Positions 22,313-49,163 of a DNA stretch of 64,000 nt are shown here, piece after piece (position 1 is the stretch's first letter; every line of letters begins with the position of its first letter). Below the pieces are notes generated by a model. It searched no databases and was not told where the DNA came from. It worked only from the letters and a program-made list of their open reading frames with translations. Origin of the DNA: an uncultured Candidatus Saccharibacteria bacterium (GTDB lineage: Bacteria; Patescibacteriota; Minisyncoccia; Phycocordibacterales; UBA9973); NCBI GenBank assembly GCA_964639185.1, contig CAZXCN010000001.1, positions 38,626 through 102,625 of the forward strand. The letters are read 5' to 3'. Position numbers and translations under genes: made by a program.

Positions 22313-22315
22313 CAT

Positions 22316-23350: not shown

Positions 23351-23369
23351 TTAATTCATATAAATAAAC

Positions 23370-28893: not shown

Positions 28894-29790
28894 ATGAATA
28901 ATAATTTTTTACCAAGCAAACAGTTTGCAAAAAGAGCAATAATAATATTTGTTCTTATTGTTGTTGTATTAATACTAACAAAAGTTACTCCTTCCATTAA
29001 AGATAAATTAAATCGGGTAAATACCAATAGACAGCTATCTGTTAGCGAATTAGTAGGGCAGGACAGTAATACAAATGGGATACAAGATTGGGAGGAAATA
29101 TTATGGGGCCTAGACCCAAATGCTGATGGATCAGAAAATAAAAATTTTATAATAAACAAAAAGAAGCAATTAAACGGTGGTGTATTGCCAGCAGAAAATG
29201 ATACTCCGTTGACTGACAACGACAAATTGGCTCGTGAATTCTTTGCTATGATTATATCACTACAACAAAGTGGCAACTTGAACGAAGACGCAATAAAAAA
29301 TATATCAAATTCTGTAGGTGCAAATATTGTTGCTGAAGATCTAAAAGATATTTATACAAAAGATATGCTAGAAATACAAAGCACTACAACTATCACAGTG
29401 GGCAACTATCAAAATGAGATGCGAAAAATAACTCAGAAATATAATAATAGCGATATGGGTAATGAACTATCATTTATCGGCCAAGCCGTAGCAGGGAATG
29501 ACCCTCAGGTATTACGTATAGGTACTTCAATAGCAAACTCATATCGTTCACTGGGCAAAGATATATTAAAAGTGTCTGTACCAACATCATTAGTAACAAC
29601 ACACTTAGAATTGGCAAATAATATGGAGAAAACAGCTCGTTCGATAGAAAATATGCGTACACTACTCGATGACCCAATGGTTGGCATGACAGCAATTGTT
29701 CAGTATAAAAGATACAATGATGCACTGCTCTTAAATTTGGAACAGATTAAAACATTTTTCATTAAAAATGGTATAATAAAATATAATTAA
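28894..29790 (+). CDS. Hypothetical membrane-anchored protein; first gene of the secretion-associated island
   Basis: N-terminal TM anchor (AIIIFVLIVVVLIL). No family. Confidence 0.45.
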   Translation: MNNNFLPSKQFAKRAIIIFVLIVVVLILTKVTPSIKDKLNRVNTNRQLSVSELVGQDSNTNGIQDWEEILWGLDPNADGSENKNFIINKKKQLNGGVLPAENDTPLTDNDKLAREFFAMIISLQQSGNLNEDAIKNISNSVGANIVAEDLKDIYTKDMLEIQSTTTITVGNYQNEMRKITQKYNNSDMGNELSFIGQAVAGNDPQVLRIGTSIANSYRSLGKDILKVSVPTSLVTTHLELANNMEKTARSIENMRTLLDDPMVGMTAIVQYKRYNDALLLNLEQIKTFFIKNGIIKYN

Positions 29791-32760: not shown

Positions 32761-32763
32761 TAT

Positions 32764-34110: not shown

Positions 34111-34111
34111 T

Positions 34112-34142
34112 AAAACAGCGTGTTGAAAAACACGCTGTTTTA
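34112..34142 (+). terminator. Terminator hairpin (AAAACAGCGTGTT..AACACGCTGTTTT)
   Basis: 13-bp perfect inverted repeat with flanking A/T runs after the 32764 gene. Confidence 0.75.
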
Positions 34143-34182
34143 TATAGCAACAGTATTAATGAAATGCTATAATATTTAAAGC

Positions 34183-36615
34183 GTGAAGAAATTCTTGCCA
34201 TACATTTTAACACTATTAGTTGTCGTGAACTTATTCGCGCCATTTAGTGTTATATGGAAAGAAAACAATACTCTATCAGTAACAAAGAACGAGGCTAAAG
34301 CATCAGGTATTATAGTATTAGGAGGAGCTGGACAAATCACTTCAACAGACACCACTATATCAGTAACAGTAACTGCGGAATTTCCTACAGATTTTTCAAA
34401 AATAGATAGCGAAGGGGTTTCTGTTTATTTAAAAAAACCCACAGAAAGTGAGGAAGATGCAAAATTAGAAACCTTAACAGATAATTTCAAAGTTGTTGCT
34501 GATAAAAAAAATACCAAATCAGGTACTGTTGTTTTCCAAGACCTAACTCCCAATACACAATACCAAGTATGGTATGCTGTCTTACAAGACGAAGGTAGTG
34601 TTTGGGGCAAGCTAACAAGTGGTTGGAGGTATGGGTATGACAATACAATATCTGCTGAAGTCAGGAATCCATCTCAAAACTATTATGAAGTAACAACAAC
34701 TTCCGGAGGGCAAGCTAACGTTAACACCGAAACATCAGGTAATGCAGAGGGTATGATGCCCGCTTGTGGTGTATCAACTGGTGATGAATTATTAGGCTGT
34801 GTGGCAAAATTATTCTACTATGCAGTATTCACCACTACATCATTCTTATTTGGATTGGCAGGTAAATTCTTTGACTGGACATTTGCCTACTCTATAACAG
34901 ACACATCATACCGAACAGCTTTTGTGAACGAAGGTTGGGCAATAGTACGTGATATATGTAATATATTTTTTATATTTGTATTGTTATATGCTGCTTTCAA
35001 ATCAATATTTGGCTCACACGAAGCTAAATCAATTGTTATAAATGTAATCATTATTGGATTACTGATAAATTTTAGCCTCTTTGCTGCCCGTATCATGATA
35101 GATGCTTCAAATATTCTAGCTAGATTATTCTATACATCACAAGCAGTAGAAATATTGGCATCAGATAGTAGTGGAAATTATTCAAGGGGTGGGGTGGACA
35201 CACTACAAGATTCTGGATTGGGGGAACTTTCTCTTTCTAGTGCTTTGGTAAATAAAATTAACCCACAAAAAATTATTCTAGGGGCAAGAAATATAAATAT
35301 CAAAGATGATGCTTTGGGTGCAAATGGTAATGCCCAAAACAACAAGAATCAACCAATCGGAATTGGGGCATTTTTCCTTATCACCCTTCTAGCTGTAATT
35401 GTAAATGTGGTTGGACTCTTTGTATTCTTATCTGTTGGCCTTATATTTGTGGCCCGAGTTATTGGATTATGGATTGCTATGGTTTTGGCACCATTTGCAT
35501 TCTTTAGTTACACAGTGCCCAAACTTTCAAAAACAAAAATGCTAGGGTGGAGTAATTGGTGGAGCGATACACTAGGGCTATGTTTTGTAGCACCAATATT
35601 TATGTTTTTCCTTTATTTAATATTACTATTCTTGGAAAATGGATTCTCATCTTTGATAGACCCAAATGTTACTGGAGCAAATTTTGTCTTGGTCACAATT
35701 ATCCCATTTGTATTTATAATGATATTACTAATGACTGCTAAAAAGTTGGCAAAAGAGTATTCAGGAACAATAGGCCAAACAATTACCGGTGCAGTTACTG
35801 CAGTAGGGGCGGCGGCGCTTGGCGGGGCAGCGTTAGGCACAGCATGGGCTGGTAGAGGAGTAGGAAAAGGTTTTAATATGGCATCACAACAAGGAACAAG
35901 ACTCAAAGAAATAAAAGAACAAAAAGCTGCAGGAACATATGTAAAACAAAAGGGTGACTGGAAAGCACAAACATTTGGACGTATTGGTAATCCACTAAAC
36001 AGAACTCAAGAAAAAATAAATAAAGTTGACCACGCTAGACATGAGCTTGATACTCTTACTGAAAAAAAGTTTGGTAAGGGTCAAAGGTTTGAAAGACTTT
36101 CTGGTTATCAAAAAAGTTTGATTCAACAAGAACATGCTAAAAAGGAACGTGCTGGTGTCGAAGAAAAATACAGAAGAGAAAATGGTCTTAGTAAAAGTCA
36201 GGCTCTTACCGCAGCACAAAGAAGTGACGTTGATGCTAAACTATCACATGAATTCGATCATTTCGTTGACGAAGCTAAGAAGAAAATTTCAGGGCTTAGT
36301 CGAGCATTTTCACAAGTCAATACTGGAAGTTGGGATGTTAGAAACATGTCAGATGTAAAACAAGACAGAAGAGAAGGTTTGATAACCAAATTCTCATCAA
36401 AATTAATGTCTGGTACTGCTGGGGGAATGCGTATGGGATTAAATAAAAGTGCTGATATAAATTACGGAAAAGGTTTTGCTGATATTTTTAAGGATCTTGG
36501 CCATACAATAACAGAAGCCTTGAAGAGTGCTAAATTTGAAATAAAAGCCGACGCTTCTCACGGAGCTGGAGCTGCTGAAAGTGGACATGATGCTGGACAT
36601 GGAGGAGGGCATTAG
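34183..36615 (+). CDS. Polytopic membrane protein, VirB6/TrbL-like candidate, with N-terminal FN3-like ectodomain and long charged cytoplasmic tail ending in His/Gly-rich segment
   Basis: Signal/TM, then ectodomain with DLTPNTQYQVWYAV (FN3-like). At least six hydrophobic helices. About 270-aa K/E/R-rich tail ending HGAGAAESGHDAGHGGGH. Assignment to VirB6 is by architecture and context only. Confidence 0.45.
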   Translation: MKKFLPYILTLLVVVNLFAPFSVIWKENNTLSVTKNEAKASGIIVLGGAGQITSTDTTISVTVTAEFPTDFSKIDSEGVSVYLKKPTESEEDAKLETLTDNFKVVADKKNTKSGTVVFQDLTPNTQYQVWYAVLQDEGSVWGKLTSGWRYGYDNTISAEVRNPSQNYYEVTTTSGGQANVNTETSGNAEGMMPACGVSTGDELLGCVAKLFYYAVFTTTSFLFGLAGKFFDWTFAYSITDTSYRTAFVNEGWAIVRDICNIFFIFVLLYAAFKSIFGSHEAKSIVINVIIIGLLINFSLFAARIMIDASNILARLFYTSQAVEILASDSSGNYSRGGVDTLQDSGLGELSLSSALVNKINPQKIILGARNINIKDDALGANGNAQNNKNQPIGIGAFFLITLLAVIVNVVGLFVFLSVGLIFVARVIGLWIAMVLAPFAFFSYTVPKLSKTKMLGWSNWWSDTLGLCFVAPIFMFFLYLILLFLENGFSSLIDPNVTGANFVLVTIIPFVFIMILLMTAKKLAKEYSGTIGQTITGAVTAVGAAALGGAALGTAWAGRGVGKGFNMASQQGTRLKEIKEQKAAGTYVKQKGDWKAQTFGRIGNPLNRTQEKINKVDHARHELDTLTEKKFGKGQRFERLSGYQKSLIQQEHAKKERAGVEEKYRRENGLSKSQALTAAQRSDVDAKLSHEFDHFVDEAKKKISGLSRAFSQVNTGSWDVRNMSDVKQDRREGLITKFSSKLMSGTAGGMRMGLNKSADINYGKGFADIFKDLGHTITEALKSAKFEIKADASHGAGAAESGHDAGHGGGH

Positions 36616-36666
36616 GAAAGATAAGCAGAAAGTAGTAAGGAAATACTAATTTAAAAAATAATTGAA

Positions 36667-37578
36667 ATGGATCAACAACAACTACAACAAAAGATCGCTG
36701 AATACGCAAGCAAGCTTCCACCAAATGCCCAAGAGTATTTTATCAAAATGGATTGGATGAATGTACTACAAACTATTGCGACTAAGTACCAGCTAAACGA
36801 ACAACAAGTAGCAAGCCTTGGTACTGAAACAACACTATTATTACTAGGTATAGTGCACCCAGATGAATATACAGGCTTCTTAAAGAAGGAGATAAATATG
36901 GAAGAAGAGGCAAGTGTACAAATGTTTAATGATATTAATACTCAGATAATTGGCAACTTGCGTGGTGACCTAGAGAGTGCCCATATGGCAAACTCGATAG
37001 AACTTGCAGAGAATGAATATGGTGATAATCTGGAAACAGAAATGAATATTCCTGAAGCCCCGAAGCCACCATACGTATCCACACCACCAGCACCAAATTT
37101 ATCTATTCCAAATGCTCCAACTCCATCATACAAGCCTGCTCCGGAAGCAATAGCTACTGTGGCTATACCAGTTGAATCTGAAGCAGACATATCAATAGAA
37201 ACAGCAAATAGCCCTACCAATATAAACCCAGCAAAAGATAGCTCTAATATTTTTTCAAATGCTGGTATAGAGATGGTGTCTATAAATAAATCCGACACTA
37301 CCATCGGAAGCCAGCCAAAGGTAATGCCATTAGTTACAAGGAGTTTCAATACAGCTGACAGGTTCATGGAATCTGGAATTGATATAATTCCCGAGCGTAA
37401 AGCTGACGATGTATTCAAGCCTAATTCTGCTACTGGGGCAGAAACTCTATCTGGTATAAATAATCCAACAATGGGTGTTGTTAATATGCTAGGCGATAAA
37501 CTAAATAAAGCCACAGTAACACCAACAACACAAAGCAACCAAAGCTTGAACAAAGACCCTTACAAAGAACAAATATAA
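36667..37578 (+). CDS. Hypothetical protein with P/S/T/N-rich low-complexity C-terminal half
   Basis: ORF. The minus-strand ORF 36942-37553 overlapping it is judged spurious. Confidence 0.4.
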   Translation: MDQQQLQQKIAEYASKLPPNAQEYFIKMDWMNVLQTIATKYQLNEQQVASLGTETTLLLLGIVHPDEYTGFLKKEINMEEEASVQMFNDINTQIIGNLRGDLESAHMANSIELAENEYGDNLETEMNIPEAPKPPYVSTPPAPNLSIPNAPTPSYKPAPEAIATVAIPVESEADISIETANSPTNINPAKDSSNIFSNAGIEMVSINKSDTTIGSQPKVMPLVTRSFNTADRFMESGIDIIPERKADDVFKPNSATGAETLSGINNPTMGVVNMLGDKLNKATVTPTTQSNQSLNKDPYKEQI

Positions 37579-37579
37579 T

Positions 37580-37981
37580 ATGCAATTCAAAGTACCACAA
37601 TTTATCGATGTAGAGGACAAATTATTTGGCCCATTTACTTTTAAACAATTTGCTTATATGGCAGGTGGTGGGGGATTGGTATATATATTGTATAAAGTAT
37701 TACCTATATGGATCGCTATTCCACTAATAATACCTGTGGTAATACTTACAGCATTACTTACTTTTTATAAAATCAATGGCAAATCTTTTCTATACTACCT
37801 ACAAGCAAGCATTACATATGCAACAAAAAGCAAGCTCTATGTATGGAAGCAACGCTTACAGAGGCCAGATACAAAGAAGGATATACCTAATCTACCTACA
37901 CAAACATCAGTAGTTCCAACACTTTCAGGAAGCAAACTCAAGGATTTATCTTGGAGCCTTGATGTACTAGACAAGAAATAG
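37580..37981 (+). CDS. PrgI-like / VirB3-like small membrane protein of type IV secretion systems
   Basis: 133 aa. N-terminal VPQFIDVEDKLFGPFTFKQF followed by two hydrophobic helices resembles PrgI-family (VirB3-analogue) proteins. Sits immediately upstream of VirB4. Confidence 0.5.
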   Translation: MQFKVPQFIDVEDKLFGPFTFKQFAYMAGGGGLVYILYKVLPIWIAIPLIIPVVILTALLTFYKINGKSFLYYLQASITYATKSKLYVWKQRLQRPDTKKDIPNLPTQTSVVPTLSGSKLKDLSWSLDVLDKK

Positions 37982-38024
37982 TTTCCCCTTACTACTTATT
38001 GAATCTACATGTTACAATAACATT

Positions 38025-38672
38025 ATGTCGCTTGATGCAAAAAGATCACAAGAATTTGTTCCAATAAAAGAAGTTCGCGATGGTATCATTATATTAAAAG
38101 ATGGTGGTCTTCGTGCGGTTCTTGTTGCTTCATCTATCAATTTATCACTCAAATCCTCAGACGAACAAAGGGCTGTTATCTCTAATTTTCAAAACTTTCT
38201 AAATGGATTGGATTTTTCTATACAAATAGTAGTTCAATCACGCAGGCTTGATATTCGACCATATTTACTAACACTCGAAGAGCGTATGAAGTTACAAGTA
38301 GAGCCACTTATAAAAATCCAAACCAAAGAATATATGGAATTTATTCAGTCATTTACAAATGAAGTAAACATAATGACCAAAAGTTTCTTTGTTGTTGTAC
38401 CATACAGTGGTGGAACATTTAAATCCGACGAGAGCATAGTGGAAAAAGTCTTAGACATGAAAAAAGCAAAGAAAACTAATTCAAAGAAGGAGGCCGACCT
38501 AGCCAGTTTTGAGGAAAAGAGGTCACAATTGGACCAGCGAGTATCCATGATAAGTCAGGGGTTAGGTGGGTTTGGAGTACGTAGTTCACAATTAGGAACC
38601 GAAGAAGTTATCGAGATGTTTTACAAGACATTTAATCCTGGTGATATAAGTCAGGGAATAAAATTAGAATAA
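38025..38672 (+). CDS. VirB4/TrbE/CagE-family ATPase, N-terminal segment (terminated by an in-frame TAA)
   Basis: FVPIKEVRDGIIILKDGGLRAVLVASSINLSLKSSDEQRAVISNFQNFLN matches the conserved N-terminal region of VirB4 proteins. Same reading frame as the downstream ATPase ORF, separated only by TAA-TAT-ATG. Confidence 0.65.
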   Translation: MSLDAKRSQEFVPIKEVRDGIIILKDGGLRAVLVASSINLSLKSSDEQRAVISNFQNFLNGLDFSIQIVVQSRRLDIRPYLLTLEERMKLQVEPLIKIQTKEYMEFIQSFTNEVNIMTKSFFVVVPYSGGTFKSDESIVEKVLDMKKAKKTNSKKEADLASFEEKRSQLDQRVSMISQGLGGFGVRSSQLGTEEVIEMFYKTFNPGDISQGIKLE

Positions 38673-38675
38673 TAT

Positions 38676-40505
38676 ATGAGTATTTTTTCATCAATTTTTG
38701 GTTCAAATAAAGCAACACCACAAGGCAAAATGGTGCTACCTGTGTTACCAAATGAAATATACCAAGCAGCCACATTGGAGCTTCAGGATATAATAGCCCC
38801 TTCAGCATTACAAATCAGCCCAAAATCACTAAATCTCGGAGACAAGATATCCCGCACATTTTTTGTTATATCATACCCACGCTACCTTACCGACAATTGG
38901 TTTTCACCAATTATCAATTTAGATAAAATATTTGATGTTTCTATATTTATTCACCCTATCAATACGGGGGAAATACTACGTTCTTTCCAAAAGAAGGTGG
39001 CTGAAGTGCAAAGTCAGATATCGATACGTGAATCCAAGGGGCTCGTGCGTGACCCAATGCTAGATACTGCATATGGCGACCTCGAGGAACTTCGCAATAA
39101 CTTGATGCAAGCTCAGGAAAAGATGTTCGATGTAGGTTTATATATCACTATATATGCCGACAACGAAAACGAATTATATAAATCCGAAAATGAAATCAAG
39201 TCATTATTGGAATCTAAATTAATATATTTAAAACCTGCATTATTCCAACAAGAAGAAGCTTTCAAAAGCTCTATCCCTACTGGTACTGACCTTTTGGAAA
39301 TAGGGCAGAAGTTGAATACCGAACCACTTTCTAGTGTATTTCCATTTGTATCCTTTGACCTTACTTCAGACAAAGGCATACTATATGGGGTAAATAGGCA
39401 TAATTCCAGCCTTATCATATTTGACCGTTTCTCACTGCCAAACTATAACTCTATTACATTTGCCACATCTGGTGCTGGTAAATCATACGCTACCAAACTA
39501 GAGATCATTCGCACTCTTATGTTTGATACCGAAGTAATTGTCATAGATCCTGAACGTGAATACGAATTCCTGTCTGAAGCAATGGGGGGTAGGTATTTCA
39601 ATATTGCACTTTCATCTGAGCACCACATCAATCCATTTGACCTGCCTATCCCAAGCGAAGACGAAACAGGTGGTGATGTATTGCGATCAAACACCATCAA
39701 CCTTGTTGGATTATTTCGTATCATGCTCGGTGGCCTAACCCCAGAAGAGGATTCCATAATCGATCGTGCTATTACAGAAACATATGCGCTTAAAGACATT
39801 ACCGCGGAAAGTGATTTTCGAAATATTGAACCTCCTTTACTTTCCGATTTTGAAATGGTTCTAGCTGGCATGGAAGGTAGTGATTCAATCATACAACGCC
39901 TTACAAAATACACTCGTGGAAGTTGGGCTTCGTTCCTAAATCAACCTTCAAATGTGGATATAAATAGAAAATTTGTTGTCTTTTCTGTACGTGATATGGA
40001 AGATGAGCTCAAACCAGTAGCTATGTATATAGTTACACATTATATATGGAACGCTATTCGTAAAAATATAAAGAAGCGACTATTGGTGGTAGATGAAGCT
40101 TGGTGGATGATGAAATCCGAGGACACAGCTTCGTTCCTATATTCTATTGCAAAACGTGGGCGTAAATATTACTTAGGGCTTGCTACTATAACCCAAGATG
40201 TGGGAGACTTTATGAAGAGCCCTTATGGTATACCTATTGTTACCAACTCTTCACTTCAACTTCTACTAAAGCAATCACCATCAACAGTAGACCTGCTTCA
40301 AAAAACTTTCAACCTTACCGACGAGGAAAAATACCTTCTTTTAGAAGCAAATGTAGGGGAGGGTATATTCTTTGCAGGACTCAAACACGTAGCTGTTAAA
40401 ACTATTGCTTCTTATACCGAGGACCAGATCATAACATCGGACCCATCACAAATATTGGCTATAAAAAAAGCAAAAGACGAATTAATGAATAATAATACGC
40501 AATAG
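38676..40505 (+). CDS. VirB4/TrbE/CagE-family type IV secretion ATPase (main body)
   Basis: Walker A ATSGAGKS, Walker B LLVVDEAWWM, and the conserved LATITQDV region. 609 aa. Confidence 0.85.
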   Translation: MSIFSSIFGSNKATPQGKMVLPVLPNEIYQAATLELQDIIAPSALQISPKSLNLGDKISRTFFVISYPRYLTDNWFSPIINLDKIFDVSIFIHPINTGEILRSFQKKVAEVQSQISIRESKGLVRDPMLDTAYGDLEELRNNLMQAQEKMFDVGLYITIYADNENELYKSENEIKSLLESKLIYLKPALFQQEEAFKSSIPTGTDLLEIGQKLNTEPLSSVFPFVSFDLTSDKGILYGVNRHNSSLIIFDRFSLPNYNSITFATSGAGKSYATKLEIIRTLMFDTEVIVIDPEREYEFLSEAMGGRYFNIALSSEHHINPFDLPIPSEDETGGDVLRSNTINLVGLFRIMLGGLTPEEDSIIDRAITETYALKDITAESDFRNIEPPLLSDFEMVLAGMEGSDSIIQRLTKYTRGSWASFLNQPSNVDINRKFVVFSVRDMEDELKPVAMYIVTHYIWNAIRKNIKKRLLVVDEAWWMMKSEDTASFLYSIAKRGRKYYLGLATITQDVGDFMKSPYGIPIVTNSSLQLLLKQSPSTVDLLQKTFNLTDEEKYLLLEANVGEGIFFAGLKHVAVKTIASYTEDQIITSDPSQILAIKKAKDELMNNNTQ

Positions 40506-40589
40506 ATATAGGGTGATACTAACAAATCGATTTGTGCTTTTAATTCTTTTCTACTTTCTACTTTTTACTTATTTTAGTATAATATAATA

Positions 40590-41579
40590 GTGAAAAAATG
40601 GTTTATACAAATAACCCTATTAATACTTTTAGTTATTAGTGTATCACCTCTGTATATCAATGCTGAGAGTCTTCAGGTTACATCTGCTGATATAAATATT
40701 GAAACAATACCAGAAAACCCAGCTCCGTATTCTGATGTAACTATCAATATTACGAGCTACGCTACTGACTTGAATAAAGCACTAATAACATGGAAAAGTG
40801 GCAATGATACACTACTTTCTGGAATAGGGCGCACAAAATATGTATTTAAAACTGGGGCTCCTAATATAAATACCGCATTTCAAATTTCTATTACCCCTGC
40901 TGGAACATTTGGGTCTGTTGATAAAAGCTTTATCATACAACCATCTGAAGTAGAGATGCTATGGCAAGCTATCGATTCATATACACCACCTTTCTACAAA
41001 GGTAGAAGTTTCCCATCAACCGAAGGGTATATTCGAGTAGTAGCTATGCCAAACACTGCTGGTGTAGCAAATATAAACAACAAGAACATGGCTTACTATT
41101 GGAAGATAAATTACAATAGTGACCAAGATGCATCGGGGTATGGCAAGGATTCATTTACTTATAAAAATAGCTACCTTAATGATATTGACCATGTTGGGGT
41201 TGCTGTATCCACCACAAATGGATCATACACTGGTACTGGTACAGTAGATATACCGATGTCTAAACCTGAAATAATTTTCTACAAAAAGTCACCTACTGAA
41301 GGGATCAATTATAACGAAGCTATATCTAATACAGTAGATATGACCGAAGATGAGATGACCCTAGTAGCAGAACCTTATTTTCTAAATAATATAATTAACA
41401 CAAATGATTTAGTATATAAATGGCAAATAAACAACAAAGATATCAATACCCCTAGAAACCCTTATGAATTAACAATCCGCCCAGAATCACGTGGGGGATA
41501 TGCTAATATAAATATATCAATAAACAGTATTAGTAAACTTTTCCAGTCGGTTAGTAAATCTATTAAAATAAATTTGTAA
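40590..41579 (+). CDS. Secreted protein with three internal beta-rich modules, unknown family
   Basis: Signal peptide (ITLLILLVISVSPLYINA-ES). Recurrent W[KQ]...N pattern. No family assignment. Confidence 0.45.
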   Translation: MKKWFIQITLLILLVISVSPLYINAESLQVTSADINIETIPENPAPYSDVTINITSYATDLNKALITWKSGNDTLLSGIGRTKYVFKTGAPNINTAFQISITPAGTFGSVDKSFIIQPSEVEMLWQAIDSYTPPFYKGRSFPSTEGYIRVVAMPNTAGVANINNKNMAYYWKINYNSDQDASGYGKDSFTYKNSYLNDIDHVGVAVSTTNGSYTGTGTVDIPMSKPEIIFYKKSPTEGINYNEAISNTVDMTEDEMTLVAEPYFLNNIINTNDLVYKWQINNKDINTPRNPYELTIRPESRGGYANINISINSISKLFQSVSKSIKINL

Positions 41580-41580
41580 T

Positions 41581-43035
41581 ATGAAAAAGGTAACCATATT
41601 AGTATTATCAATATTAACAATGCTTGGTGGAGTATTTATTTCAATGTACCCACAAAAGGCTAGTGCAGCAGCATGTTCTGTATCATCAGCAACTTTTAGC
41701 CCTAGTGGTGATCAAGCAGACAAATGGTATGCCCCTGGTAAAAACAAAGTGTCCATAGAAATAATCACTGAAAATTGCATTGGGCAAACACTTACCGTAA
41801 ATGTAACAGAAGCGGACAGTTGCCCTCTTGTTGATTGCGATGATTATTTACCAGATTCAGGACTTGAAAATTTAAAAATAAAAATTGAACAAATTATTAC
41901 AAATATAGATATAACTGCAGGTGAGGAATCTTGTGAAGCAGGACTGGGGTTTGATTGTGATTTATATCTTCGAGTTAAAAGTGGTGGTTATTCATTGTAT
42001 TCATCTTGGGAAAAGAGTCAGGGTAATTTAAGATATGAATGTAGTGGTGTGTGTTTAGACAATGCAAAATTAGGAAATATTGCATTTAGTGAGGGAACTG
42101 GTCCTGTTAATGAAAATGGTGATCCTGTATCTGTTACACCTACAGGCAACCGAGTATTTGATGAGGATTATAAATTACTAGCACCATTACCTGGGATATC
42201 TAAAATAGACAGTACAACAACTACATTGGGAGATTATCTGAATATAATTTTCAAATTAGCTATTGGTATTTGTGGGGCACTGGCTGTAATTATGATTGTA
42301 ATATACGGAGTACAGTACATGGGGGATGGGTCAGTATTTGGTCATACTGAGGCAAAGAGCAAGATATCAGCTGCTATAATGGGTCTATTACTAGCACTCG
42401 GTGCATATGCAATATTGAATACAATTAATCCCGATCTGGTAGGGGAAAGTGGTATAAACATAAAGCAAGTACAGATAAGTATCTCTCCAGACGATACATC
42501 AACAGGATCATCTACAAATCTTTGTATTTCATCAACAAATCCGCCAAATCCAGATGATGCGAAAGGGACAACAGTAACTTTAAACAAAACCATGCTGGAT
42601 AAATACATACCTGAAATAAACAAAATTACTTCATTAAAAACTGGTCAAAAATTACTAATGACAGCACAAACATTTACTGAAGGTTTTAACGAAACTCCAT
42701 CACCAGGTACTAAATCTTACAGAACAAATAATCCTGGTAATATAGGGAACACAGATGATGGTAAAACTAAATCTTTTCCAACACTTAAAGAAGGCATAAT
42801 AGCACAATCAACCGAAGTGATAAGTGGGAAAGGAAGTTACCAGATCAATGGATCATCCACCTGTGCTCTTGGCAAAGAATTATATGATGGGTCTTTGTAT
42901 CAGTATTTAAGAATATATTCTACTGGAGCAAGACAAAATAATAATTATGTTAATTCTATTATTGGTTATTTTAAAGCAAACGGTAAAACAATTACAGCAA
43001 GAACAAAGATGTCTGAAATATATAACATGAATTAA
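41581..43035 (+). CDS. Secreted Cys-rich protein with an internal VirB2/TrbC-pilin-like two-helix hydrophobic hairpin and a C-terminal globular domain
   Basis: Signal peptide. Cys-rich N-domain. Segment FKLAIGICGALAVIMIVIYGVQYMGDGSVFGHTEAKSKISAAIMGLLLALGAYAILNTI resembles TrbC/VirB2 pilin helices. C-terminal ~200 aa of unknown function. Confidence 0.4.
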   Translation: MKKVTILVLSILTMLGGVFISMYPQKASAAACSVSSATFSPSGDQADKWYAPGKNKVSIEIITENCIGQTLTVNVTEADSCPLVDCDDYLPDSGLENLKIKIEQIITNIDITAGEESCEAGLGFDCDLYLRVKSGGYSLYSSWEKSQGNLRYECSGVCLDNAKLGNIAFSEGTGPVNENGDPVSVTPTGNRVFDEDYKLLAPLPGISKIDSTTTTLGDYLNIIFKLAIGICGALAVIMIVIYGVQYMGDGSVFGHTEAKSKISAAIMGLLLALGAYAILNTINPDLVGESGINIKQVQISISPDDTSTGSSTNLCISSTNPPNPDDAKGTTVTLNKTMLDKYIPEINKITSLKTGQKLLMTAQTFTEGFNETPSPGTKSYRTNNPGNIGNTDDGKTKSFPTLKEGIIAQSTEVISGKGSYQINGSSTCALGKELYDGSLYQYLRIYSTGARQNNNYVNSIIGYFKANGKTITARTKMSEIYNMN

Positions 43036-43040
43036 TTAAC

Positions 43041-44363
43041 ATGAGAAAGACAATAATCATTATTATACTTATACTAATCACCGCTGGTGGGACATTTTGG
43101 TATATACAAAATAAACAAAATACTACTGCAACCAGTAACACTAATACAGACACTGGATTCTTTAAATCATTCTTTTCATTTACACAAAAAAAATCAGACA
43201 CAACAACTGGTACTGGCTCGGACACAACAGACACAACAACTGGTACAGACACCAATGGCGATGGGGTAGTAGATACTTCAGTACAAAATACTCCTAAATT
43301 AAAACAGGTCACAAATTTTGCGATATCAGGTTTTACAACATTTATCGACAAAAGAAAGCTTCCAGAAAGTGCAGTACCTTTTTCTGAAACACCAATATTA
43401 ACAAACACAAAGGAAAAGCAAGTAACCCCGATAATACCTAAAATAGAGGAGGAGTCAGTGTCAGCATTACGCTATGTTGCACGATCAAATGGACATATTT
43501 ATAGTCAGTATTTAGACACAGAAGCAAGTGCTAAAACATCTAACTCAACAATTCCAAGTATTTACGAAACATATTTAGGCAACAATGGTAGTGCTGTAAT
43601 ATACAGATACCTAAGCAATAACAACAAAACAATACAAACATTTCTAACACATACAAATCAAACAAAAGGGGATTTTCTTCAAGAAGATATAACAAGTGTA
43701 TCAATATCACCAGATAGTGTTGGTTTATTCTACCTTGCACCACTCGGTAGTGATATAGCTGGTTATTACATGAACCTTCAGGATAATAATAAAGTACAAA
43801 TATTCACATCTGCATTTACTGAGTGGTTACCACAATGGGCAGGGACTTCTACTATATTCCTGACAACAAAGCCATCATGGGACACCAGAGGTTCATTGTA
43901 CGCAACAAATATAGGTAAAAACAATTTCACAAAAGTATTTGGAGGGATAAAGGGTCTAACCACACTTGCTTCTAATAATGCTACAAATATAATATACAGC
44001 GCAACAACAAATATTGGCCCAGAATTAGGTGTATACAATATAGAAAAGAAAGAATTCACAAAGCTTCCAGTACGAACAATGGCAGATAAATGCGTATGGA
44101 GCAGGGATGGGGTGAGGGTTTATTGTGCAAAGCCAAACAACATTGAAGGCAATAAGTATCCAGATAACTGGTATAAAGGCATAACTTCATTCAATGACAG
44201 TATTGTAGTTATAGATATTACAAACAAATCTTACCTAACTATCATAAATACTGAAGATGTTTCAGCAATAGATGCAATAAATCTAACACTATCAAAAGAT
44301 GAAAAGGTTTTATTATTTATGAATAAAAAAGATTCAACATTGTGGAGATTGGATTTAGAATAA
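43041..44363 (+). CDS. Membrane-anchored protein with T-rich linker and beta-propeller-like (TolB/PD40-like) C-terminal region, unknown function
   Basis: N-terminal TM (IIIIILILITAGGTFWYI), T/G/D-rich linker, repeated [YF]..[ST].DG-type blades. Assignment is weak. Confidence 0.4.
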   Translation: MRKTIIIIILILITAGGTFWYIQNKQNTTATSNTNTDTGFFKSFFSFTQKKSDTTTGTGSDTTDTTTGTDTNGDGVVDTSVQNTPKLKQVTNFAISGFTTFIDKRKLPESAVPFSETPILTNTKEKQVTPIIPKIEEESVSALRYVARSNGHIYSQYLDTEASAKTSNSTIPSIYETYLGNNGSAVIYRYLSNNNKTIQTFLTHTNQTKGDFLQEDITSVSISPDSVGLFYLAPLGSDIAGYYMNLQDNNKVQIFTSAFTEWLPQWAGTSTIFLTTKPSWDTRGSLYATNIGKNNFTKVFGGIKGLTTLASNNATNIIYSATTNIGPELGVYNIEKKEFTKLPVRTMADKCVWSRDGVRVYCAKPNNIEGNKYPDNWYKGITSFNDSIVVIDITNKSYLTIINTEDVSAIDAINLTLSKDEKVLLFMNKKDSTLWRLDLE

Positions 44364-44374
44364 CCTCTCCCTAG

Positions 44375-44438
44375 CCCTCTCCTTTGTAATGAGAGGGGAT
44401 AACCAAAAGAAAAAGAGGAGATTATATCTCCTCTTTTT
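44375..44438. terminator. Two adjacent terminator hairpins between convergent genes (CCCTCTCC..GGAGAGGG and AAAAAGAGGAGAT..ATCTCCTCTTTTT)
   Basis: Perfect inverted repeats with A/T runs, one serving each strand. Confidence 0.7.
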
Positions 44439-44889
44439 CTTTGTATTTAATTACTACTCTACGTCCTGGACCAACTCCAGATGATTCAGTAGTGATGTCT
44501 GGGATATTCTCTAGAAACATGTGCACAATACGACGTTCATATGCAGGCATAGGGTCAAGCTCGACACTATTCTTGAAATATCGTGCGCGCTCAGCCAACA
44601 TGTGTGCAGTAGTTTTCAAGCTATCAAACCTCTTCTTATTATAACCATTGATATCGATCATAAGCATGCCGGCCTCGGCCTCACTTATATCCTTCTCGAT
44701 CATTTTACGAACAATATGATTTAAAGATTTAAGTGTATCACCCTCACGGCCTATCATGAATCGTGAATCGGGTGTTGATACAGAGCACCACAACATTGAG
44801 CCTTCTTCGGTAAATTCACATGCATCCAATTTGCACGCTGTGTGTTTAAATATATCTTCTATTATTTTTTTTATATTATCTTTGTCCAT
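44422..44889 (-). CDS. Jag/KhpB-like R3H-domain RNA-binding protein
   Basis: KH-like plus R3H motif (ERRIVHMFLEN...SSGVGPGRRVVI). Downstream of yidC as in the canonical oriC-region operon. Confidence 0.8.
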   Translation of the reverse strand: MDKDNIKKIIEDIFKHTACKLDACEFTEEGSMLWCSVSTPDSRFMIGREGDTLKSLNHIVRKMIEKDISEAEAGMLMIDINGYNKKRFDSLKTTAHMLAERARYFKNSVELDPMPAYERRIVHMFLENIPDITTESSGVGPGRRVVIKYKEKEEI

Positions 44890-44902
44890 ATTTATAATAT
44901 AT

Positions 44903-45664
44903 TTATTTTACTTCAATCGCTTTTACTTCTATTATGCCATCTTCTTTCTTTAAATTATTCTTTACGTACCATTCCTGAATAATTGTAAACACGTTACTTG
45001 TAACCCAATAAAGTGCTACTGCTGCAGATATTTTGTAAGAAATAAATACTATGAATATTGGTAATATAAAGCGAACATTTACAGACATACTGTCAGACAT
45101 TTGCTCTTGGAAAGTTTTTGGTTTATCAGAATCAGCTGGGTCTTTCTTTGGCTTTTTTGCAAACATCATCTGCCCTTGGATAAATTGTGATATACCAGCA
45201 AGCAAAGCAAGAACTATTGATTTACCATGAACATCAATAACACCTAGGAACATTGTGTGTAAATTCACTGGCATTGTTACAAATGAATATAATGGGTCAG
45301 TCCCTTGTGCCAAACCCTTATAAAATGCGTAATACAAAGCAAATATAACAGGCAACTGTACTAACAGAACCAAACACCCAGAAAAAGGATTTACTTTGTA
45401 TTGTTTATATAACTCAAAAGTCTTCTTTGATTGCTCTTCTTTATTTGGATAATCCTCCTTTATCTTCTTTAGAAGGGGTTCTATTTGCTTCATTTTGAAT
45501 TGACTGCGAATAGACTTCTTTGAAAGAGGGAATAGTATCAGTTTTACTAAAATTGTAAGTATTATGATAGCAAAACCAACATCCCCAAAGGTGACATGGT
45601 TTATAATAAAGATAAGAGCGTTATAAATAGGTTGATAAAAAAGATTAGTCCAAATAGTTTGCAT
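44903..45664 (-). CDS. yidC: Membrane protein insertase YidC/Oxa1 family (short form)
   Basis: Five-TM core with conserved hydrophilic groove residues. Position in the rpmH-rnpA-yidD-yidC-jag cluster. Confidence 0.9.
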   Translation of the reverse strand: MQTIWTNLFYQPIYNALIFIINHVTFGDVGFAIIILTILVKLILFPLSKKSIRSQFKMKQIEPLLKKIKEDYPNKEEQSKKTFELYKQYKVNPFSGCLVLLVQLPVIFALYYAFYKGLAQGTDPLYSFVTMPVNLHTMFLGVIDVHGKSIVLALLAGISQFIQGQMMFAKKPKKDPADSDKPKTFQEQMSDSMSVNVRFILPIFIVFISYKISAAVALYWVTSNVFTIIQEWYVKNNLKKEDGIIEVKAIEVK

Positions 45665-45707
45665 TAAACTATTGTAACTTAATAAGCTCTAAAATCAAAA
45701 TATTTGT

Positions 45708-45914
45708 TTATTTTAAAGGGTCTAAGCGGTTTTTCTGCCATGGATGGCAACGTAATATCCTATACACACCTTTATACACACCTTTTAGAGATCCATACTT
45801 TTCAATAGCTTGTTTAGTATACTCAGAGCAAGTTGGGACAAAAACACAAGCATAATGCGCCCTTGTTGGGGTCTTTTGATATGTATTTATAAGCCAAATT
45901 AGTAGTTTTTTCAA
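45708..45914 (-). CDS. yidD: Membrane protein insertion efficiency factor YidD
   Basis: 68 aa with the C.F.PTCSEY...RC.PW motif. Confidence 0.85.
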   Translation of the reverse strand: MKKLLIWLINTYQKTPTRAHYACVFVPTCSEYTKQAIEKYGSLKGVYKGVYRILRCHPWQKNRLDPLK

Positions 45915-45915
45915 T

Positions 45916-46245
45916 TTAAGCCTTTATTTTAAGGAATAATTCAGATAAATCGCCTTTAATTTGCTCAAAAGAAGCCTCTTTGGCTTGTTTCTTGTAAAAA
46001 ACTATGTAAACAAAGCCTTTTTTGAGATTCACACAAGAAATAGCCCTATAACCCTGTCTTCGAAGGGAATTACGCTTTGAGGCAAGCTTGGCTACTGCTT
46101 TTGGTGCAACAAAGGCTAATTTATATACATCTTTATCCGAAAAAGCCTTATATTTCAACATAAAAAAAGGGCTATGCAAAACATTGCCTTCTTTTATGAC
46201 AGAATCGAATAACCCTTTTGTTACTCGTCTATTCTTTGAGATCAT
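45916..46245 (-). CDS. rnpA: Ribonuclease P protein component
   Basis: 109 aa, basic. Immediately downstream of rpmH (1-nt spacing), conserved synteny. Confidence 0.8.
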   Translation of the reverse strand: MISKNRRVTKGLFDSVIKEGNVLHSPFFMLKYKAFSDKDVYKLAFVAPKAVAKLASKRNSLRRQGYRAISCVNLKKGFVYIVFYKKQAKEASFEQIKGDLSELFLKIKA

Positions 46246-46247
46246 AC

Positions 46248-46388
46248 TTATTTTGATACTGAGAGTTTTGCGCGACCCTTTTGGCGTCGGCGAGCAAGCA
46301 CCTTCTTACCACCAACTGTTTTTGTACGAGTTAGGAAGCCGTGAGTTTTTGCTCTTTTTCTTTTATTAGGTTGGTATGTTTGAGACAT
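46248..46388 (-). CDS. rpmH: 50S ribosomal protein L34
   Basis: [46 protein letters not shown], 46 aa, a near-textbook L34 sequence. The longer ORF-track version has a spurious upstream extension. Confidence 0.9.
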
Positions 46389-46497
46389 ATAGGAAATATA
46401 TACTATAATGTACATTATTGCAAATCCACATGTTATCAACATGTTAATTAAGAGTTGCAAGTATTACTTATTAACAAAGACGGGTATAATACAAATT

Positions 46498-47838
46498 ATG
46501 AATAACACAAAGGAATTATGGAATACATGCCTAATAGATATCGAATCAAATATCTCACGTGCCAACTTTACAACATGGTTCAAGAACACATCTATCATAA
46601 AAGAGGATAGTGGTACGTTACACATAGGTGTTCCAAATGAATTCGTAAAGGATTGGTTATACAACAAATTCCACAAACTGATCCTAAAAACTCTAATGTC
46701 ACACAAGGATGATATTCGTAGCATTGAATACGTGATAGTTAAACATGACTCTAGTAAAATAGCACCACCTCCAGTCTCTACCCAAAACAAAGAATTACCT
46801 TTAGGTGATTTATATATAAACAAAGAAGATAATCTAAATCCTAAATACACATTCAACTCATTTATTGTTGGACCTTTCAACGAGCTTGCTTATGCCGTAT
46901 CACAAGCAATAATAAACAATCCTGGCAATAGTTATAATCCTTTCTTTATTTATGGTGGTACTGGGTTGGGTAAAACTCATATGATCCAATCAATAGGGAA
47001 TACCATAAAAGCAAAATTTCCAAACAAAAAGATATTCTATGTAAGCTTGGAAAGGTTTTCAATCGATTATGTAAATTCATTACAAAACAAAACACCAAAT
47101 GCTTTCAAGGAGAAGTATAGAAAATACGATGTGATAATAATGGATGATATTCAATTCATATCTGGTAAAGAAAAAACTCAGGAAGAATTATTCCACTTAT
47201 TCAACACACTTCACGAGAGTAACCGACAGATAATATTCTCATCTGATAAACACCCGAACTTTATCCAAGGTCTAGAGGAGAGGTTACAATCAAGATTTGC
47301 TTCAGGTATGACTGTTCAAATAACTGAACCTGACTATGAATCTCGTATAGCTATAATACAAGCTAAATTACAGAACAATAATTGTATCGTGGATGAAGAT
47401 GTGGTTTCATATCTTGCAGCTTCTCTTGAGGGTAATATACGCGAATTAGAGGGTAGTTTGAACGCTATTATATGCCAATCTCAATTAAAAAATAAGAGTA
47501 TTAGTCTAATAGAAGCAAAACAATTAATAAAAAACAACATTAAACCAAAAAAGAGTGTTGCAATAAAAGATGTTGTAAAAACAATAGCTGATTATTATGG
47601 AATAGAAGAAGAAACAATATACGATAAAACAAGAAGGAAGGAGATAGTTCGAGCTCGCCAAGTAACTATGTATATCTTGAGAGAAGATTTCAATATATCT
47701 TACCCACTTATTGGTCAGAAAATGGGTGGCAAAGATCACACAACAGTAATACACTCTCATTTAAAAATAAAGAAGGATATAACAACCGACCCAGCATTAG
47801 TACAAGAATTAGAAAAGATAAGAATATTGTTTAAATAG
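46498..47838 (+). CDS. dnaA: Chromosomal replication initiator protein DnaA
   Basis: Start taken at MNNTKELW. AAA+ Walker A GGTGLGKTHM, Walker B IMDDIQF, and C-terminal DNA-binding helix-turn-helix. Confidence 0.95.
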   Translation: MNNTKELWNTCLIDIESNISRANFTTWFKNTSIIKEDSGTLHIGVPNEFVKDWLYNKFHKLILKTLMSHKDDIRSIEYVIVKHDSSKIAPPPVSTQNKELPLGDLYINKEDNLNPKYTFNSFIVGPFNELAYAVSQAIINNPGNSYNPFFIYGGTGLGKTHMIQSIGNTIKAKFPNKKIFYVSLERFSIDYVNSLQNKTPNAFKEKYRKYDVIIMDDIQFISGKEKTQEELFHLFNTLHESNRQIIFSSDKHPNFIQGLEERLQSRFASGMTVQITEPDYESRIAIIQAKLQNNNCIVDEDVVSYLAASLEGNIRELEGSLNAIICQSQLKNKSISLIEAKQLIKNNIKPKKSVAIKDVVKTIADYYGIEEETIYDKTRRKEIVRARQVTMYILREDFNISYPLIGQKMGGKDHTTVIHSHLKIKKDITTDPALVQELEKIRILFK

Positions 47839-48065
47839 TTGTGGATAAGTTACTTATAAGTTAATAAAAAAATGTTTATAAGTGTTAATAAAAATAGAAT
47901 AAGTACACGGTTTAATAAAAAATGTATTTAAATAAAAATTAATTAACATTTCGATAATTTAAAAAACAATAATATACATTTATAAAATAAGGTTTAAAAA
48001 GTAATCCACATTATACAGACAGTAATAGTAATAATAATGTATTAATAGATAATATACACAATTAT
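47839..48065. promoter_or_regulatory. Candidate chromosomal origin (oriC): AT-rich dnaA-dnaN intergenic region with DnaA boxes
   Basis: Perfect DnaA box in reverse orientation TGTGGATAA at 47840-47848. Near-consensus TAATCCACA at 48002-48010. Additional TTATAAGT/ATATACACA-like boxes and a >85% AT tract. Canonical location next to dnaA/dnaN, diverging from rpmH. Confidence 0.6.
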
Positions 48066-49163
48066 ATGAATATAGAAACAACATTAGAAAAGATAAAGAA
48101 AGCATTGGTTATTGTAGAGAGAATGACTGGTAAGAATTTAACACTACCAGTACTAAATTCAATATTGATAATAGCTCGTGGTAATAACTTGATACTAAGA
48201 TCAACAAACCTTAGTATTGGTGCTGAGATATCAATACCTGTAAAAGTAATAAAAGAAGGTGTTGTCGCTGTAAAGGGTGATATCCTTAGCTCAATGTTTT
48301 CAAATATAAATACTGATAGTAATGTTGTTTTTATTCAACAAGATAATAATTTGAATATAAAAACAAAAAACAATAATATAACTCTCAAGACATTACCACA
48401 CGAAGACTTTCCAACACTACCTGTTGTGGAGGGGGAAACATGTGTAATACCAGCAAGTAAGTTAATCGAAGGTTTGAAATCTGTTTATTTTAGTGCATCT
48501 GTTTCTGATATTAAACCAGAGATAGGTAGTGTGTATATATACCCAGAAGACGATAATCTTGTCTTTGTTGCTACTGACTCATTTAGGCTTGCTGAGAAAA
48601 AGGTAAAAATAAAACAAAATTTAAATTTTAATGGAATATTAATACCATTTAAGAATACTATAGAATTAATAAGAGTTTTTGAAGGTGAGACAGATGATGT
48701 GAATATTGTTTTTAATAAAAACCAAGCATCTTTTACTGTAGGTAATATTTATATTACTTCTCGTGTTATCGACGGTGTATTCCCTGATTATAAACAGATA
48801 ATTCCAAAACAACCAACAACAGAGGTTGTAATTTTGAAACAAGATATAATTAATGCTTTAAAGGTAGCAAATGTTTTATCTGATAAATTTAATCAAATAA
48901 TATTTGAAATTAACCCAAAAGAGAAAAAGTTTGAAATAGAATCTAGGAATACAGATGTTGGAGAAAACATAACAATGGTTGCTGGTGCTTTGAAAGGGGA
49001 GGAGGTTACAGCATCTTTTAATTATCGATATATATTAGATTCATTTCAATCAATATCAGTAGACAGTGTTACTTTTGAGTTAACTGGTAGTAATAAAGCC
49101 ATGGTAATACGCCCTATAAGCGATAATACGTTCTTATACCTCATTATGCCTATGAATAGGTAA
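48066..49163 (+). CDS. dnaN: DNA polymerase III beta sliding clamp
   Basis: 365 aa, three-domain clamp, immediately downstream of dnaA. Terminal MPMNR-like C-terminus. Confidence 0.9.
   Translation: MNIETTLEKIKKALVIVERMTGKNLTLPVLNSILIIARGNNLILRSTNLSIGAEISIPVKVIKEGVVAVKGDILSSMFSNINTDSNVVFIQQDNNLNIKTKNNNITLKTLPHEDFPTLPVVEGETCVIPASKLIEGLKSVYFSASVSDIKPEIGSVYIYPEDDNLVFVATDSFRLAEKKVKIKQNLNFNGILIPFKNTIELIRVFEGETDDVNIVFNKNQASFTVGNIYITSRVIDGVFPDYKQIIPKQPTTEVVILKQDIINALKVANVLSDKFNQIIFEINPKEKKFEIESRNTDVGENITMVAGALKGEEVTASFNYRYILDSFQSISVDSVTFELTGSNKAMVIRPISDNTFLYLIMPMNR

Follow-up and report, generated by a model that had tools for sequence, protein, structure and literature searches.

A VirB2-like pilin hairpin fused to a putative cell-wall hydrolase in a chromosomal type IV secretion locus of Patescibacteria

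Introduction

Type IV secretion systems (T4SSs) are widespread in Patescibacteria, where their loci lie close to the replication origin; in the one species tested they are essential for epibiotic growth (PMC10633639, PMC12857230). Candidatus Southlakia epibionticum cannot grow as an epibiont without the T4SS locus or without the pilin array within it (PMC10633639). The S. epibionticum locus encodes separate small pilins of family PF18895 (SEML1_0014-0019) and the hydrolases SEML1_0006 and SEML1_0007 (PMC10633639, Table S2), the pilins of the Saccharibacteria locus being separate from its GH73/lysozyme/peptidase protein (PMC10633639). The hydrolases of the Saccharibacterial T4SS locus are likewise stated to be essential (PMC12102498). 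Here we describe a single gene of such a locus, located in a 64,000-nucleotide stretch of DNA from an uncultured Candidatus Saccharibacteria bacterium (GenBank assembly GCA_964639185.1, contig CAZXCN010000001.1, positions 38,626 to 102,625 of the forward strand). This whole stretch is termed the window, and all coordinates below are counted from its first nucleotide. The product of the gene (the target protein) combines a VirB2-like pilin hairpin with a putative peptidoglycan hydrolase on one polypeptide chain.

The PF18895 pilins of Patescibacteria are typically proteins of about 125-140 amino acids (aa), comprising a signal peptide and a hairpin only and often encoded in arrays of 2-11 genes. 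Matches to this profile were tallied as "VirB2-like pilins" in a 2025 survey. No description of a pilin-hydrolase fusion was found in that survey, in a 2025 FEMS review or in the other literature searched. The target shares with these pilins the profile family, a Gram-positive-type locus with PrgI and VirB4, and a position near dnaA, in agreement with the report that Paceibacteria T4SS loci adjoin dnaA (Quinonero-Coronel et al., PMC12102498). In contrast to them, it is a single gene of 484 aa, with a 170-aa immunoglobulin (Ig)-like domain before the hairpin, roughly 190 aa of linker and enzyme-like domain after it, and no small pilin nearby.

Results

A tripartite protein with a central two-helix module

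The target protein consists of an N-terminal beta-sandwich (N-domain), a pilin-like hairpin module and a C-terminal helical domain (C-domain), joined by two linkers. The segments of the open reading frame (ORF) are as follows.

41581..43035, plus strand: target ORF, ATG start, 484 aa (ORF listing)
41581..41670, plus strand: Sec signal peptide, residues 1-30, with a KK n-region, a hydrophobic core at 4-24 and an ASA/A-type motif (hydropathy scan and predicted helix 2-21)
41671..42090, plus strand: N-domain, residues 31-170, a disulfide-rich, Ig/fibronectin type III-like beta-sandwich, predicted to be extracytoplasmic, swappable (AlphaFold2, homologues)
42091..42168, plus strand: variable disordered linker, residues 171-196 (predicted local distance difference test, pLDDT, 44-48; median identity 15%)
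42169..42453, plus strand: VirB2-like pilin module, residues 197-291 (PF18895, NF045849, conservation)
42226..42324, plus strand: transmembrane helix 1, residues 216-248 (AlphaFold2)
42334..42426, plus strand: transmembrane helix 2, residues 252-282 (AlphaFold2)
42454..42570, plus strand: second linker, residues 292-330, with a conserved DTSTGSST...LC(315) segment (low pLDDT at 292-310)
42571..43032, plus strand: C-domain, residues 331-484, all-alpha, putative lysozyme-like peptidoglycan hydrolase (AlphaFold2, invariant residues)
42679..42681, plus strand: codon of E367, the candidate catalytic acid

This tripartite architecture is close to certain. Homologues of the target numbered 350 at E ≤ 1e-3, and the protein recurs with 100% identity on two independent assemblies, which rules out a chance ORF. 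A fusion generated by frameshift or misassembly is ruled out by the same two assemblies and by the tripartite layout of more than 100 homologues. Counts of domains in homologues refer throughout to 120 listed homologues, of 290-750 aa in length.

The initial annotation, made from the DNA letters alone, had described a secreted protein with a Cys-rich N-terminal domain, a two-helix segment and a C-terminal globular domain, and each of these elements was borne out by the ORF coordinates, hydropathy and AlphaFold2 modelling. A Kyte-Doolittle scan yielded three hydrophobic segments (residues 1-24, 218-248 and 260-283), and the cleavage-type motif ASA/A of the signal peptide is located near residues 27-30. 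The two strings originally singled out as the hairpin, AIGICGALAVIMIVIYGVQYMGDGS at residue 227 and AAIMGLLLALGAYAILNTI at residue 264, are both present in the target protein. The full-length AlphaFold2 model (pLDDT 86, with 87 homologues in the alignment) shows an N-terminal leader helix (2-21) followed by a low-confidence stretch, a beta-sandwich (33-169), a disordered linker (171-191), a short beta-hairpin (197-209), the two helices 216-248 and 252-282 (pLDDT about 89-94), a linker and a helical domain (336-481).

Eight of the 11 cysteines are located in the N-domain (positions 32, 66, 81, 86, 118, 126, 154 and 158). The pairs 32/66, 118/126 and 154/158 are co-conserved among homologues, while the pair 81/86 is lineage-specific. 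C315 of the second linker is kept in 68 of 87 sequences and C428 of the C-domain in 40 of 87; from these we infer a C315-C428 disulfide, which would link the second linker to the C-domain. The conserved pairing of cysteines fits an extracytoplasmic location of both globular parts. A role for Cys32 as a lipoprotein cysteine was ruled out, since K26 breaks the PROSITE-type lipobox context and Cys32 is co-conserved with Cys66.

The beta fold of the N-domain was modelled at pLDDT 88-97, and its Foldseek matches were generic beta-sandwiches only (the GH3 C-terminal domain, Asf1 and the carbohydrate-binding module of Wzt; best E 3.8e-3). The domain was found in about 42 of the 120 homologues, with a median identity to the query of 36% (15% for the linker that follows it), and is tandemly duplicated before the hairpin in three of them (P0007, P0061 and P0073). 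In other homologues the N-terminal slot is occupied by TIG, fn3, Big or PEGA domains. Neither the N-domain nor the C-domain had a match in Pfam, in NCBIfam, in PHROGs or in the Protein Data Bank (PDB), the last searched with phmmer and, using a 52-sequence profile, with hmmsearch.

Relationship of the hairpin to T4SS pilins

Judged by its profile matches, the hairpin is a homologue of T4SS pilins, rather than a look-alike. Of the 71 positions of PF18895 (T4SS_pilin), 2-70 align with residues 213-281 (E 6e-5; 23.5 bits, marginally below the cut-off of 26.6), and NF045849, the NCBIfam profile of a pilin-like small protein of Mycoplasma integrative and conjugative elements, aligns at residues 209-282 over positions 2-76 of 80. 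The two profiles span the module end to end. PF18895 was also matched by 47 of 52 orthologues (best E 2.9e-10), with scores of 39.1 bits for homologue P0081 and 29.0 bits for P0116, and the target carries PF18895 in its precomputed annotation. By these scores, membership of the module in the PF18895 family appears marginal for the target sequence and clear for the orthologue family. The PF04956 (TrbC/VirB2) profile, the family proposed for the check, gave no match that would confer membership on the target itself (8.9 bits versus a cut-off of 27.9; E 2.4); weak matches were recorded in 31 of the 52 orthologues at E < 1 (best 7.7e-5).

The hairpin was present in all 120 listed homologues, whereas a C-domain of the query type was found in about 52. 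No other module is as well conserved (against the query, the median identity is 59% for the hairpin and 67% for its first transmembrane helix), which contradicts the second possibility raised originally, namely a simple membrane anchor that only mimics a pilin hairpin: conservation beyond that of any other module indicates more than a passive anchor. The pilin assignment was to be dropped if no pilin profile matched and the helices were not conserved; a profile match and conservation were both found.

The module opens with a Y197-x-L-L-A-P motif (Y197-K-L-L-A-P-L-P-G in the target) on the short beta-hairpin, and its exit is marked by a conserved LNTINPxL sequence after helix 2. Y197, G268 and L279 are invariant, and L200, A201, P202, T281, P284 and L286 are conserved at ≥90%. 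The short loop between the helices carries the conserved Lys255. A signal peptide, two hydrophobic helices and a short polar loop provide the pilin-type layout. However, the target is 484 aa long, with a folded domain before and another after the hairpin; it falls outside the range of small stand-alone pilins (about 100-150 aa, leader and hairpin alone), and size and composition set the complete protein apart from canonical pilins. No conserved cleavage motif was found in the flanking linkers (median linker identity 15%).

Exchange of the enzyme domain at a fixed genomic position

Synteny was compared in seven loci, comprising that of the target and those of six relatives. In the relatives, the syntenic slot of the target gene encodes proteins that share the hairpin and have the following C-terminal domains.

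P0044: VanY
P0107: Amidase_2
P0055: NlpC/P60
P0088: SLT
P0072: Peptidase_M23
P0054: YkuD

A seventh hydrolase family, Peptidase_M15_4, was detected in homologue P0081, and SLT occurs in three positional orthologues (P0088, P0093 and P0117). Altogether, a known peptidoglycan-hydrolase domain from one of these seven families is carried by 47 of the 120 homologues, according to precomputed Pfam annotation, and the enzyme domain was C-terminal to the hairpin in all 10 proteins scanned. The general plan of the family is one or more variable Ig-like domains, a constant VirB2-like hairpin and a variable cell-wall enzyme. Two hairpin-bearing homologues, P0074 and P0078, are each listed with a longest NCBI contig of 344230 bp; if this is the same contig, at least two pilin-fusion paralogues may be present in a single genome.

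The C-domain, a putative wall hydrolase

Modelled alone, the C-domain gave a confident all-alpha AlphaFold2 structure (pLDDT 86.8; predicted template-modelling score 0.81). In the 52 orthologues its invariant positions are Y342, E367, G368, N384, G386, N387, G405, Q409, G437, L443, Y446 and Y456. These include part of an NNPGNIG motif at residues 383-389, and both E-G and N-P-G-N stay invariant when 83 distant members are included. When 1.84 billion representative proteins were searched exhaustively with HMMER, only 202 clusters at 50% identity were returned (E ≤ 1e-3). By these sequence criteria the C-domain forms an uncharacterised family of its own, which has no Pfam entry.

Throughout this family the domain is nearly always C-terminal, in host proteins of 55 to 2493 aa, and the pilin hairpin accompanies it in just 10 of 112 new members. 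Among 83 hairpin-free members scanned, the recognisable partners were PG_binding_1 (six proteins, best 3e-39), PG_binding_3 (three), SH3_3 or SH3_4 (three) and Phage_base_V (one), and no others. PG_binding, SH3 and Phage_base_V domains commonly accompany muralytic catalytic domains. On the strength of its context, the C-domain is probably a cell-wall hydrolase. The initial annotation had raised a VirB1-like peptidoglycan hydrolase as a possibility to be checked; the hydrolase part of that idea is strongly supported by context, while by sequence the domain is not VirB1- or SLT-like.

The SLT profile PF01464 did not match the target, and PF01832 (GH73) gave no match at E ≤ 10 in the target and none in the 52 orthologues or the 83 distant members. 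Structural comparison, although weak, leaned consistently towards GH73. A Foldseek search of the PDB returned no significant match; eight of the top 10 structures belong to GH73 (E 0.28-6; query TM-score, TMq, 0.31-0.37), namely Auto, LytB, FlgJ (four entries), AtlA and 5t1q. The best BFVD match (E 3.3e-3, TMq 0.43) was a "Peptidoglycan binding-like" protein of a phage, and further matches were mostly phage proteins annotated as GH73. An alignment of 11 GH73 sequences (E. coli FlgJ and ten phage lysins) was then compared by hhalign with a narrow and a wide profile of the C-domain. The two families align co-linearly, TAQTFTE(367)GF falling onto AQAALESGWG with E367 on the catalytic Glu and, in this non-significant alignment, NNPGNIG onto NLFGIK and YSTGARQNNNY onto GYATDPxY. 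E367 coincided with the GH73 catalytic Glu in every run that spanned it (P 0.0013-0.16). The beta-lobe of GH73, which bears the second acidic residue, is missing from the C-domain model and falls into an alignment gap.

Filing the C-domain under GH73 was rejected, since the co-linear alignment lacks significance. The EG[GF] motif of the C-domain, together with partners of the PG_binding_3 type, also brought GH108 into consideration; it remained a thought, no GH108 structure being present among the Foldseek matches. A stripped-down lysozyme/GH73-like glycosidase is plausible as a lead.

As a separate observation, the NNPGNIG C-domain also ends giant proteins of 1000-2500 aa, such as P0189 (2493 aa), P0204 (2449 aa) and P0228 (2078 aa). 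Its occurrence in these and in one Phage_base_V spike protein suggests use as a warhead in other delivery contexts.

The T4SS locus

The target gene belongs to a co-directional cluster of 11 genes (28894..44363), wedged between ksgA (28041..28868) and the jag(R3H)-yidC-rnpA-rpmH / dnaA-dnaN block (44422..49163). The main features around the target gene are listed here.

34183..36615, plus strand: polytopic 810-aa membrane protein, a probable VirB6-like channel subunit (signal and at least five hydrophobic segments)
37580..37981, plus strand: PrgI/VirB3-like gene (PF12666, 40.3 bits)
38025..38672, plus strand: N-terminal piece of VirB4, TraC-like/TrsD, 215 aa (NF041427 TrsD and VirB4 N-region)
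38676..40505, plus strand: VirB4 ATPase piece, 609 aa, CD1110-family (NF045971, 372.8 bits)
40590..41579, plus strand: secreted 329-aa protein, directly 5' of the target (signal peptide; no Pfam match)
43041..44363, plus strand: 440-aa protein with an N-terminal transmembrane anchor, directly 3' of the target, last gene of the operon (no Pfam match)
44406..44442: terminator-like stem-loop, 17 perfect base pairs, T-rich 3' side

The locus encodes a chromosomal T4SS of Gram-positive type (MPF-FATA-like), as found in Patescibacteria of the Paceibacteria/Nomurabacteria-like kind, and the target occupies the pilin position. Its homologues come from Ca. Nomurabacteria and Paceibacterota and bear the NCBI product name "pilin". 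In all seven loci compared the order is fixed: PrgI, TraC-like, VirB4, a gene of ~326 aa, the fusion gene, a gene of ~440 aa and jag/yidC/rnpA/dnaA. The target gene had been placed just downstream of VirB4 and linked functionally to it. The link to the locus stands, being strictly syntenic; the 329-aa gene (40590..41579) intervenes, however, and the target lies two genes downstream. The PrgI/TcpE-type family, against which the target was to be searched, belongs to another gene of the cluster (37580..37981).

VirB4 is split into two ORFs in every related locus examined, which identifies the split as a feature of gene organisation and not as a frameshift; PF19044 was also matched within the split region (38025..40505). 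Positional counterparts of the 810-aa protein in relatives match PF19590 (TrbL_3). Counterparts of the 329-aa gene (about 316-330 aa) were present in every relative checked, and those of the 440-aa gene measure 418-453 aa. The target ATG lies one base past the stop of the 329-aa gene (TAA-T-ATG), a near-zero spacing that places both in one tightly packed operon, and the next ATG follows five bases beyond the target. The 329-aa and 440-aa proteins are candidate partners of the fusion protein. The stem-loop at 44406..44442, between the convergent last T4SS gene and jag, is likely a bidirectional terminator.

A second pilin-like ORF was absent from the 64 kb, as judged by a hidden Markov model (HMM) of the hairpin run on six-frame ORFs, a scan for small ORFs with two transmembrane segments, and Pfam on the neighbours; one weak hairpin-HMM match (46251..46463) was discarded as ribosomal protein L34. 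Pfam revealed no other hydrolase within the T4SS operon. No maturation peptidase (TraF/LepB-like or other), relaxase or coupling protein was recognised among the scanned ORFs in and around the cluster.

The three upstream genes of the cluster (298, 989 and 448 aa; 28894..34110) each encode a single N-terminal hydrophobic segment and have no Pfam match; the 989-aa and 448-aa products, with 8 and 6 cysteines, are probably surface-exposed T4SS accessory proteins. Outside the cluster, about 9 kb upstream of the operon, lies a LysM and Peptidase_M23 protein (18867..20072, minus strand); no other peptidoglycan hydrolase that stands alone was recognised in the window. Pfam gave no match at E ≤ 1e-4 for a run of three large ORFs (20300..25661; 670, 344 and 763 aa). 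Beyond the origin-proximal block lies a gene for a class A penicillin-binding protein (49428..51959, minus strand). Further along, a T2SSE/PilB-type ATPase (PF00437, 391 bits) with an MshEN domain (56815..58533, minus strand) indicates a type IV pilus or a T2SS-like system elsewhere in the window.

Discussion

We favour, at about even confidence, the interpretation of the target protein as a membrane-tethered wall hydrolase docked on the T4SS, that is, a VirB2-like/VirB1-like fusion. In the proposed mechanism, the Sec pathway would export the N-terminus and signal peptidase would remove the leader. The hairpin would then insert with both ends outside (N-out/C-out), its short Lys-bearing loop facing the cytoplasm and both globular domains the exterior, a topology predicted from the signal peptide and two transmembrane helices, the conserved Cys pairs and the need of a wall enzyme for an outside location. 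The C-domain would thus be extracytoplasmic and, being encoded in the T4SS operon, would match a VirB1-type placement. The hairpin, as the sole constant and most conserved module, may dock specifically on the VirB3/VirB4/VirB6 membrane platform, through the interactions that normally recruit VirB2 pilins. The C-domain, on its flexible linker of ~40 residues, would cut peptidoglycan at the machine with E367 as the candidate catalytic acid, and the N-terminal Ig-like domain would act as a spacer or adhesin. The wall cut could be the cell's own, for passage of the apparatus in a VirB1-like role, and/or that of the attached host cell. Of these, the host's wall at the epibiotic contact is the target we favour, over or alongside the own wall, since close relatives with ~60% identical hairpins and the same synteny swap at least eight enzyme chemistries, a pattern suggestive of adaptation to target walls that differ between lineages.

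Several points weigh against this interpretation. The target scores 23.5 bits for PF18895, just below the curated cut-off of 26.6. The fold matches of the C-domain are weak (best E 3.3e-3, TM 0.31-0.43) and catalysis is putative, and hhalign yields no significant relationship to GH73 (local P 0.037-0.16, global P 0.0013, probability ≤7%). Contact of the hairpin with VirB3, VirB4 or VirB6 is a prediction from its conservation, and the choice between own and host wall is purely inferential. A polymerising or processed pilin would explain the conservation of the hairpin equally well; moreover, the target is the sole VirB2-like gene of the locus, with disordered flanking linkers and sharp module boundaries.

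The last points lead to two alternatives in which the hairpin is a pilin proper. VirB4 might extract it into a VirB2-type filament or conduit, every subunit of which displays the Ig-like domain and the wall hydrolase; since both termini of a VirB2-type pilin face the filament exterior, such a filament would digest its way through the host wall. We consider this rather unlikely. Any pilin-based structure must use the target, since neither the window nor the syntenic loci contain another VirB2-like gene, the conservation of the hairpin far exceeds the needs of an anchor, and disordered linkers of about 25 and 40 residues lie on either side. The globular cargo, however, of roughly 170 and 190 residues per subunit, would crowd a five-start VirB2-type lattice, by a rough estimate from F/T-pilus geometry. 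Pilins are essential in the Saccharibacterial T4SS, for which a pilus has been proposed (PMC10633639; PMC12857230), whereas no T4SS pilus was reported for any Patescibacterium in the literature examined. Alternatively, the protein might be a polyprotein precursor whose N-domain serves as a lengthened leader or pro-domain and whose C-domain is an enzyme to be set free. Cuts near Y197 and after LNTINPxL would release a pilin of ~95 aa, which would assemble as small CPR pilins do, together with soluble Ig-like and hydrolase domains. There are precedents: long leaders are removed from the pilins VirB2, TraA and TrbC, and TrbC of RP4 is shortened at its C-terminus as well. The module is sized like a stand-alone pilin and covered end to end by two small-pilin profiles, and its sharply conserved boundaries are flanked by variable, disordered linkers. 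These linkers nevertheless lack a conserved cleavage motif at their median identity of 15%, the scan of the operon recognised no peptidase, whether TraF/LepB-like or of another type, and Cys315 and Cys428 suggest that the second linker is structurally tied to the C-domain, so that we regard processing of this kind as quite improbable.

A very improbable explanation, in our judgement, is a housekeeping wall or adhesin protein, with the two helices as an anchor, no mechanistic role in the T4SS and a C-domain that binds glycan without cleaving it. The location of the locus beside the replication origin, amid housekeeping genes and with PBP1 nearby, and the failure of the C-domain to match any characterised enzyme significantly would be in keeping with such a role. 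In seven loci, however, the gene is locked into the T4SS operon, enclosed by two conserved genes that are specific to the T4SS, and its anchor is homologous to T4SS pilins. Furthermore, the invariant Glu and NPGN across the C-domain family, together with the seven catalytic hydrolase families that share the slot, argue for catalysis, and the pairing of the C-domain elsewhere with dedicated peptidoglycan-binding domains, as is usual for catalytic domains, argues against mere glycan binding.

The favoured interpretation, a hydrolase tethered at the T4SS, would place a pilin-like module and a wall hydrolase on a single polypeptide in one large lineage, where the hydrolase part alternates between eight or more domain types while the genomic position stays fixed. 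The fusion would remove the apparent absence of VirB1 and would make a polymorphic, probably host-facing enzyme part of the T4SS core, while the NNPGNIG C-domain defines a small uncharacterised family of muralytic type. The swapping hints at a way in which these parasites may breach cell walls where the secretion machine sits. It also raises the questions of whether the type of C-domain tracks the wall chemistry of the host, and of whether a VirB2-type hairpin can bear cargo at its two ends. A bolder and, we believe, unlikely extension is that subunits each bearing an adhesin-like Ig domain and a peptidoglycan hydrolase make up, or seed, the T4SS pilus of Paceibacteria-type Patescibacteria, forming a self-drilling conduit with a swappable warhead (VanY, M15, NlpC/P60, YkuD, M23, SLT, amidase or the NNPGNIG domain) matched to the wall chemistry of the host; if true, a host-range determinant could be read straight from the genome.

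Comparison with known systems

Among the T4SS-associated wall enzymes of monoderm systems, which are functional analogues of VirB1, PrgK (pCF10), TraG (pIP501), CwlT (ICEBs1) and SEML1_0006/0007 resemble the target in being encoded in a T4SS operon, membrane-tethered and extracytoplasmic (as predicted for the target), and in their modular, interchangeable muralytic domains. One of them, SEML1_0006, has a domain of GH73, which of all families comes closest to the target C-domain. The two groups differ in their anchors, which in PrgK, TraG and CwlT are a single N-terminal transmembrane segment or a lipid, versus the pilin hairpin of the target. They also differ in their enzymes: the SLT, CHAP, LytM and GH73 domains of the known proteins are recognisable by profiles, whereas the target C-domain is not. 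VirB1 proper, in turn, has an SLT-type lytic transglycosylase domain that the target lacks. With the GH73 N-acetylglucosaminidases (FlgJ, Listeria Auto, Enterococcus AtlA and pneumococcal LytB), the top structural neighbours in two libraries, the C-domain would be at best a distant lysozyme-fold relative, of a family of its own and without the beta-hairpin lobe.

The classical VirB2, TrbC and TraA pilins of Gram-negative T4SSs share with the target the layout of helix, polar loop and helix, a predicted N-out/C-out topology and a locus with VirB3 and VirB4. Unlike these, the target bears large domains on both termini, and its organism is a monoderm without genes for an outer-membrane core complex, in contrast to the Gram-negative hosts of VirB2.

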